Virus record (IMG/VR): IMGVR_UViG_2657244961_000008
Location: 1 to 43,067 of that record
DNA from: a virus
Lineage: Duplodnaviria; Heunggongvirae; Uroviricota; Caudoviricetes
Reading direction: 5' to 3' (one strand)
DNA: 43,067 nt
Below the pieces are notes generated by a model. It searched no databases. It saw only the letters and a list, made by a program, of their open reading frames with translations, and was not told where the DNA came from. Position numbers and translations under genes: made by a program. Shown here one piece after another: positions 41,702 to 43,067 of the stretch (position 1 is its first letter; every line of letters begins with the position of its first letter).

Positions 41702-41980
41702 GTGATAGCCATGAGCGAACAGTACCTGATAACGCTCGACGAGTGGAAACCAAAACGGTTCAGTCTCCCAATAACAAACACTACCCTGGTGAAATACGGA
41801 AAACTAGGATACATCGTTCCAAGGCCACAAAAAATTCGTGGGCGTTGGCTGATAGATCGCCGAGCAGTATTTGTTGGGCCTGGTGAAACGGGAATTGCGC
41901 CGGAAATTCATACTGGCGATGATGATGCACTGAAGGAGATTTTAACTCATGTCACCGAGGCCACGAAAAAACAGCACTGA
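41702..41980 (+). CDS. xis: excisionase (Xis-like)
   Basis: 92 aa with the pattern LITLDEW...GYIVPRP...RGRWLID, resembling lambda Xis LTLQEW...GREYLF. Overlaps the int start. Confidence 0.65.
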   Translation: MIAMSEQYLITLDEWKPKRFSLPITNTTLVKYGKLGYIVPRPQKIRGRWLIDRRAVFVGPGETGIAPEIHTGDDDALKEILTHVTEATKKQH

Positions 41981-43067
41981 CGTAGCCGGTCTTTACGAAA
42001 AGTTTGATCGCAGAACTGGCAGAGTTTACTACCAGTATAAAAATCCTGTGACTGGAAAATTTCACGGACTCGGAACAGACAAAGGTAAGGCAGAAAAAAT
42101 CGCTTCCACAGCCAATCAGCGAATAGCTGCAGCAGAAGCTGAATATTTCATGCGCAAAATTGATGAAAGTCCGTCAGCAACAAAACGTCGGGGTATCAGA
42201 TTAAAGGCATGGGTTGATCGATATCTGAAAATACAGGACACGCGACTGAAAAATGGAGATATTGCAGCTACAACTCACAAAGAAAAAACCCGAATGGCTG
42301 CATACCTGGTTTCCCGTCTGGGAAACCACCCATTGAAAGAACTGGAAGTAAGAGACTTTGCATTAATACTGGATGAGTGGCTGGATAAAGACATGGTCAG
42401 CACAGCGAGAGTAAATCGTGGATTATGGGTTGATATTTATAAAGAAGCACAGCATGCAGGGGAAGTTCCTCCTGGATGGAATCCTCCGGAGGCTACCCGT
42501 AAACCGATCCCTAAAGTAACCAGAGCCAGGCTCACCATGGAAGACTGGCAAAAAATTTACAATGCAACGCCTGAAAAACACTTTATCCGTAACGCAATGC
42601 TTCTTGCGATTGTTACTGGTCAGCGCCGTGATGACATTTGCCACATGCGTTTTTCAGATGTGTGGAACGAACACTTGCATATCACCCAGGGAAAAACCGG
42701 AATGCGTCTGGCGTTACCGCTTACACTACGATGTGATGCCATTGGGATAACGTTAAAAGAAGTTATTGATGGGTGCCGAGACAGAATATTAAGTCCATAT
42801 CTAATCCATAGTCGGCACCAGAAACAACCGAAGCCGATGAGTAAAGACAACCTGAGCGACTACTTTGCCAAAGCACGGGATCTGGCTGGGATAATTCCAC
42901 CAGCAGGAAAAACTCCGCCAACATTTCATGAACAACGCTCTCTATCAGAACGGCTGTACCGTGCACAGGGTATTGATACAAAAACATTACTAGGACATAA
43001 AGTCCAGGCAACCACCGATCGCTATAACGATACTCGAGGTCAGGAATGGGTTAAGTTGGTTATTTGA
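41949..43067 (+). CDS. int: tyrosine integrase
   Basis: 372 aa. C-terminus contains H..R and the catalytic Tyr context LGHKVQATTDRYNDTRG. Stop codon is at the last base of the window. Confidence 0.9.
   Translation: MSPRPRKNSTDVAGLYEKFDRRTGRVYYQYKNPVTGKFHGLGTDKGKAEKIASTANQRIAAAEAEYFMRKIDESPSATKRRGIRLKAWVDRYLKIQDTRLKNGDIAATTHKEKTRMAAYLVSRLGNHPLKELEVRDFALILDEWLDKDMVSTARVNRGLWVDIYKEAQHAGEVPPGWNPPEATRKPIPKVTRARLTMEDWQKIYNATPEKHFIRNAMLLAIVTGQRRDDICHMRFSDVWNEHLHITQGKTGMRLALPLTLRCDAIGITLKEVIDGCRDRILSPYLIHSRHQKQPKPMSKDNLSDYFAKARDLAGIIPPAGKTPPTFHEQRSLSERLYRAQGIDTKTLLGHKVQATTDRYNDTRGQEWVKLVI

Follow-up and report, generated by a model that had tools for sequence, protein, structure and literature searches.

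The xis-int pair of a lambdoid prophage and its attachment sites at the potB/potC locus of Escherichia coli

The question raised by this locus is whether the overlapping xis and int genes that close a prophage sequence form a complete integration and excision module and, if so, where the attachment sites lie and whether anything in the element would keep the prophage from leaving them. The sequence under study is a 43,067-nt stretch of DNA (the window, which throughout means the whole of this stretch), for which a preliminary description had placed an intact xis-int pair at the right-hand end and an attachment site just beyond it. Our analysis indicates that the pair is very probably the integration and excision module of a lambdoid prophage. 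The early genes of this prophage are Qin-like and its head genes HK97-like, and its insertion, which falls in the last codons of potB, splits potAB from potCD.

The integrase, the excisionase and their neighbours

The integrase gene ends exactly with the window, its TGA stop codon (43065-43067) forming the final three bases as had been read originally, and its DNA is 100% identical to RefSeq copies annotated WP_000074983.1. Profile searches of the product detected PF09003 Arm-DNA-bind_1 (E 3.8e-21; 75.4 bits against a cut-off of 22 bits; profile positions 1-65 of 74) and PF00589 Phage_integrase (E 1.5e-18, 68 bits), while the central core-binding domain is covered by the collinearity of the full-length protein with lambda Int. 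BLASTP aligned the two integrases with 35% identity over 351 positions (E 5e-61), and comparison with the lambda Int structure PDB 1z1b matched residues 26-371 of the query to lambda residues 22-354 in a single stretch (E 4e-54). With both Pfam domains present and collinearity with lambda Int maintained, the proposal of a full-length integrase is borne out. A residue-by-residue alignment further demonstrated that the catalytic hexad is complete, with R226, K249, H327, R330, H350 and Y359 corresponding to lambda R212, K235, H308, R311, H333 and Y342. Loss of the catalytic tyrosine had been chosen beforehand as the test of an intact pair; since Y359 is present, that objection falls. The three-domain architecture and the six catalytic residues are those of lambda Int (PDB 1z1b, 1z1g, 5j0n), and the enzyme is most likely a heterobivalent lambda-type tyrosine recombinase.

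The longest reading frame of the upstream gene extends from GTG 41702 to 41980 and contains an alternative start at ATG 41711. Because xis is annotated from ATG 41711 (270 nt, WP_000003742.1) in RefSeq relatives whose DNA is 100% identical, and a GGAG is found 8 nt before this codon, translation probably begins at 41711 rather than at GTG 41702. The original claim that xis overlaps the int start stands, with the int ATG lying inside the xis 3' end, while the xis start first given is probably 9 nt too early. Xis matched PHROG 629 'excisionase' with E 4.6e-26 over residues 4-85 of 89 and Pfam Exc (PF07825) with 23.0 bits, exactly at the gathering score of 23. It resembles lambda Xis weakly, though collinearly from the N-terminus (29% identity, E 0.008 in the pairwise comparison), and a PDB sequence search with Xis returned chance-level matches only. 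The gene encodes a small basic protein and sits directly upstream of int, and this position together with the profile match suggests an excisionase. The Pfam and PHROG matches argue that neither int nor xis is a chance reading frame. The same arrangement is seen in lambda (NC_001416; int 27812-28882, xis 28860-29078), where xis likewise lies directly upstream of and overlaps int, by 23 nt (28860-28882) as against 32 nt here, and where int is likewise the last gene before attP.

Table 1 Features of the prophage, in window coordinates (negative positions precede base 1; positions with a plus sign follow the last base)
Feature	Position	Strand	Basis or remark
potB-side core TGAATAAGAAGGTG	-264..-251 (251-264 nt before base 1)		JRRG01000022.1
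IS10	25408..26736	-	402-aa transposase; 9-bp target duplication TGCTTAATC
CI-like repressor, HTH_3 + Peptidase_S24	36594..37241	+	full length, 215 aa; called 214 aa in JRRG01000022.1
DicF sRNA, full length	38512..38563	+	Rfam, 76.7 bits
813-aa protein, Exonuc_VIII (RecE-like) N-terminal and Rv2179c-like 3'-5' exoribonuclease C-terminal domain	39208..41649	+	
xis, predicted excisionase, 89 aa	41711..41980	+	RefSeq start in identical copies; PHROG 629; Pfam Exc
xis/int overlap, 32 nt	41949..41980	+	read from sequence; int ATG inside xis 3' end
int, lambda-type tyrosine integrase, 372 aa	41949..43067	+	ATG start
Int residues 1-64, arm-type DNA-binding domain	41949..42140	+	Pfam PF09003
Int residues 194-363, catalytic domain	42528..43037	+	Pfam PF00589
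Catalytic Y359 codon TAT (lambda Y342)	43023..43025	+	alignment to lambda Int
int-side core TGAATAAAAAGGTG	+145..+158 (145-158 nt beyond window end)		JRRG01000022.1

Scans of 41400..43067 for sigma-70 promoters and intrinsic terminators produced nothing above shuffled expectation, and a pI-like promoter for int is accordingly not claimed. Since no promoter-like site was found in this region, the regulation proposed below for xis and int is derived from gene order. No Rfam RNA family was found within 41702..43067, and an inverted repeat between the exonuclease gene and xis (41663-41669/41684-41690) was set aside, as it folds no better than shuffled sequences (z -1.55). The 813-aa exonuclease encoded immediately upstream of xis is identical to WP_042631013.1 and occurs in 213 indexed blocks of the assembly collection.

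The K-12 integrase pseudogene intQ had initially been offered as the comparator for this pair, and parts of the early region do resemble the Qin prophage. The DNA of window positions 37952..39199 is 96.6% identical to K-12 Qin, only across ydfC-dicF-dicB-ydfD, and the Qin early-left order dicB-ydfD-ydfE'-intQ' parallels the order dicB-ydfD-exonuclease-(xis)-int of the window; in Qin both the exonuclease and int (intQ, pseudogene b1579) are broken by IS2. These likenesses would favor the view that the pair is the intact counterpart of intQ. The DNA homology, however, does not reach the exonuclease gene but ends at 39199, a tblastn search of the K-12 Qin region (1630000-1655000) with Int and Xis returned no match at E<1e-3, and Qin is inserted at ydfJ/rspB rather than at potB/potC. 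As far as detectable homology goes, orthology with intQ is thus refuted; we consider it exceedingly improbable, and the comparison with intQ has to be dropped.

Junctions with potB and potC

The flanks of the window were taken from the source contig JRRG01000022.1 (assembly GCA_000826805.1), which was recovered through exact matches to the tail-fibre assembly protein of the window and to the product of a 118-aa early reading frame, and in which the window occupies positions 366446-409512. The two sequences agree without a mismatch at both ends, for 6582 nt on the left and 13544 nt on the right. In this record the prophage lies between potB and potC, in the order potA, potB, core TGAATAAGAAGGTG, a 250-bp arm, tfa and the remaining prophage genes to int, a 144-bp arm, core TGAATAAAAAGGTG, potC and potD, with the potC ATG located at +167 past the window end. 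Comparison of the junctions of relatives carrying identical xis-int DNA with the uninterrupted K-12 potB-potC region defines a common core of 14 bp, TGAATAAGAAGGTG, and in a 600-nt junction query the homology of empty-site genomes begins exactly at core base 1. The window thus spans the prophage precisely from its first to its last gene with both att sites outside it, and the prophage extends beyond the window by 264 nt on the left and 158 nt on the right.

These positions agree with the original expectation of an attachment site just beyond the window, and the extension of the sequence that had been advised to find attL and its target gene locates the attL core and identifies the 3' end of potB as the target, the insertion falling in the last codons of this gene and immediately before potC. 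By the lambda convention the int-proximal junction is termed attL, so the name initially given to this site is retained; attR is likewise outside the window, on the other side. Integration alters the C-terminus of PotB from ...NKKVELE* to ...NKKVSELDD*, the tail ELE* being replaced by the phage-encoded SELDD*. The core is duplicated at the two junctions and the insertion lies between potB and potC, as defines the potB/potC prophages. The same organization is observed in other genomes: complete genomes with identical xis-int DNA carry potC 167 nt after int, followed by potD, with the other prophage end adjoining potB, and int was followed by potC 167 nt later in all ten sampled contexts of the neighbouring exonuclease gene. 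Lambda differs in its target, with attB situated between gal and bio and not inside the 3' end of a gene such as potB.

Joined attP sequences and strand exchange

A search of IMG/VR recovered the joined attP (int-proximal arm, core, distal arm) in four contigs, and the attP rebuilt from the source junctions differs from these four sequences by only a few substitutions. A 33-nt P-arm pattern gave no match in IMG/VR, and the region of the pattern contains a single polymorphism. The first contig, IMGVR_UViG_2534681703_000014, has a length of 45,442 bp, and its two ends overlap exactly for 123 nt inside the distal arm. Such a terminal overlap is the signature of a circular assembly, and the Int encoded by this contig differs from that of the window at 2 of 372 residues. 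The remaining three contigs carry int, attP and tfa mid-contig, and one of them encodes an Int 100% identical to that of the window. The phage records ON470612 and ON470619, whose int is 99.7% identical, were rejected as evidence of free virions because they are predicted prophages with the host potC-potD flank still attached.

The attP-joint molecules could represent excised circles or tandem lysogens, and the finding of four such contigs suggests that one or the other, spontaneous excision or tandem lysogeny, occurs often enough to appear in assemblies. That they are tandem double lysogens or assembly artefacts, and hence uninformative on excision, is in our estimation possible but less than probable. 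All four are contigs of isolate genomes in IMG from the short-read era, and matching ends are limited to one of them, the other three having int-attP-tfa in their interior. Against an artefact, the 14-bp shared core is too short to produce a false assembly join, so that real attP-joint molecules (P'-core-P) must have been sequenced; against a lack of information on the recombinase, a tandem lysogen would itself require Int-mediated recombination at these sites.

Inspection of the attP arms revealed a repeated motif, TTTTGGRGA, present as three tandem copies that lie 54-87 bp from the core in the int-proximal arm and as two copies, one of them TTTTCGAGA, at about 125-150 bp from the core in the distal arm of 250 bp. 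All five copies have the same orientation and are invariant in the five attP sequences. Five occurrences in 408 bp compare with 0.09 expected from the density in the window, although the associated P-value is optimistic because the motif was chosen after the sequence had been inspected. We propose the TTTTGGRGA repeats as candidate arm-type sites, the TTTTGGAGA repeats being putative targets of the Int N-terminal domain. A complex attP layout is accordingly present, in which candidate arm repeats flank a short core that attB also carries. The arrangement of three int-proximal and two distal copies resembles the annotated Int-binding sites of lambda, and the placement of the distal repeats at about 130-150 bp from the core is also lambda-like. 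Unlike in lambda, where an Int-binding site (27814-27854) overlaps the int 3' end, the int-proximal arm here lies wholly past the int stop, and the arm motif TTTTGGRGA and the core TGAATAAGAAGGTG differ from those of lambda, as do the Int and Xis sequences.

A further element of the distal arm is a strong GC-rich hairpin, CCCCTCCCCGAC-N9-GTCGGGGAGG, situated about 36-66 nt before window base 1, just past the tfa stop, and kept in five of five attP sequences. This hairpin could terminate transcription of the tail operon; alternatively, it could affect transcripts that leave int and cross attP, in a manner analogous to lambda sib.

The two cores of the source strain are not identical, for at position 8 the potB-side core has G and the int-side core has A. 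The base in question is the third of a potB Lys codon (AAG/AAA), so that the substitution is synonymous. Empty attB sites with A were found at 100% identity and full coverage in all of the best 30 complete genomes listed, ATCC 8739 and E. coli C among them. Where the core is followed by the distal P arm, G is present in 7 of the 7 junctions seen; where the P' arm and core are followed by potC, A is present in 5 of 16. Judged from these counts, the difference at position 8 is a natural host attB polymorphism: the distribution of the two bases argues that A derives from the host and G from the phage, which in turn would place the crossover to the left of position 8, within core positions 1-7. 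Because attP and attB diverge just left of position 1, strand exchange would be confined to TGAATAA. The overlap used by lambda Int is 7 bp long, and a lambda-like 7-bp overlap is thereby suggested for this element. To our knowledge the strand-exchange region of the potB-site integrase had not been defined previously; its assignment from natural attB variation is only a mildly new detail.

Taken together, these features would support the following mechanism. The N-terminal domain of Int would bind the TTTTGGRGA repeats of both arms (three copies within the 144 bp of the int-proximal arm, two within the 250 bp of the distal one), while its core-binding and catalytic domains would cut and rejoin the DNA on either side of the putative overlap TGAATAA within the 14-bp TGAATAAGAAGGTG common to attP and attB. 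Xis, the predicted product of the overlapping upstream frame, would steer the reaction toward excision. The CI-like repressor gene precedes, and shares its strand with, the early-left operon closed by xis and int, and because both genes end an operon downstream of a LexA-like cleavable CI, SOS induction should co-express them.

Excision competence, distribution and potCD expression

A reading opposed to an excisable prophage is that int and xis are intact in sequence but that the prophage is a fixed, non-excising resident, blocked by the core mismatch or by defects elsewhere; regulation, antitermination or the IS10-bearing late operon could each be responsible. The difference between the source cores at position 8 would be in keeping with this, yet it appears to be a host attB polymorphism outside a 7-bp segment. 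Since TGAATAA is identical in both source junctions, the G/A heterology is not expected to block the reaction, and on the strength of the natural variation a one-base difference in the core should not impede excision.

The insertion of IS10 had been singled out at the outset as a reservation about excision, and its position between the Q antiterminator gene (28677..29498, minus strand) and the holin gene (24448..24750, minus strand), ahead of the lysis and late genes, might be taken to favor a fixed resident. The copies of the target duplication (25399-25407 and 26737-26745) nevertheless place the element precisely at TTAA, the stop shared by two convergent reading frames, 24881..25405 (plus strand, PHROG 5663) and 26740..27042 (minus strand). 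As the insertion falls where the two stop codons overlapped, neither frame is broken and every reading frame is left whole, and the question is largely moot for excision. IS10 is oriented with late transcription, on which it could have an effect, but not on excision. Its junction in the window was found in none of the complete E. coli genomes of the collection, which did not include the source assembly.

Many prophages with the same int and xis, including those of ETEC H10407 and strain 181.1, have a CI repressor cut to a 112-aa remnant that retains the S24 domain only. The degraded look of these relatives would again suit a fixed resident, whereas the repressor of the window copy is full length, and this variation argues that the copies differ in likely inducibility. 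Also against a fixed resident are the sizes of the late genes: the reading frames of the terminase large subunit, portal, capsid, tape measure, J and tfa are equal in size to those of a related prophage or differ by at most 2 residues, with the exception of the tail fibre, where the window copy has 1139 aa as against 1151 aa and so falls 12 residues short. Presence in 26% of complete E. coli genomes, where the int-potC junction of the window recurs in 1392 of 5426, is compatible with long-term residence; attP-form molecules, on the other hand, exist for the identical Int. On balance we judge it unlikely that the prophage is a fixed resident. The preferred reading, that the pair is the integration and excision module of a potB/potC prophage, makes excision competence in the source strain plausible, with no obstacle visible in the sequence. 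As its recombination module shows no defect in sequence, the element is best regarded as potentially mobile.

The distribution of the module emphasizes its ordinary nature. The uninterrupted potB-potC site is present in 3750 of the 5426 complete genomes, the shared int-potC junction occurs in E2348/69 and in O157:H7 strains, and ETEC H10407 carries, by annotation, the same int followed by potC. The potB/potC locus is a published insertion site of prophages and Stx phages (PMC8065619, PMC9997748, PMC4632033, PMC10925052); reported occupants include the PP_potB prophage of O157:H7 clade 8 (PMC9997748), Phi-CFT073-potB (PMC4632033) and 'prophage 5 (potC)' (PMC10925052), and a potC site for Stx phages is attributed to Steyert et al. 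as cited in PMC8065619. The lambdoid prophages described at potB/potC in E. coli thus share the locus of the window element, while their cargo and late regions are mosaic, the window copy being distinguished by IS10 and by its tail-fibre allele, whose end had no match above 97% in complete E. coli genomes. A literature search recovered no report of experimental excision for a potB prophage. The module is the standard integrase of lambdoid prophages integrated at potB/potC, already known and very common. Because it is identical in more than 1000 sequenced E. coli genomes and its site is published, the module will not surprise a specialist; the main value of these results is a correct annotation, with little importance beyond it.

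Two more general consequences may be considered. The AAG/AAA polymorphism of attB would provide a map, obtained without an experiment, of the strand-exchange region TGAATAA of a very common integrase. The second consequence concerns the host genes behind the prophage. The core preserves the ribosome-binding site of potC, and scans of the int-potC spacer in a relative gave no promoter-like or terminator-like site above shuffled expectation. With potCD severed from the potA promoter by the prophage, int reading into potC and no promoter-like site found between these two genes, a quarter of E. coli strains might rely for potCD expression on transcripts of the prophage early-left operon that run on into potC. 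That both would hold jointly, the polymorphism mapping strand exchange and prophage read-through driving potCD, we regard as improbable. If potCD were indeed driven in this way, polyamine uptake through the spermidine transporter subunits would be coupled to the state of the prophage.
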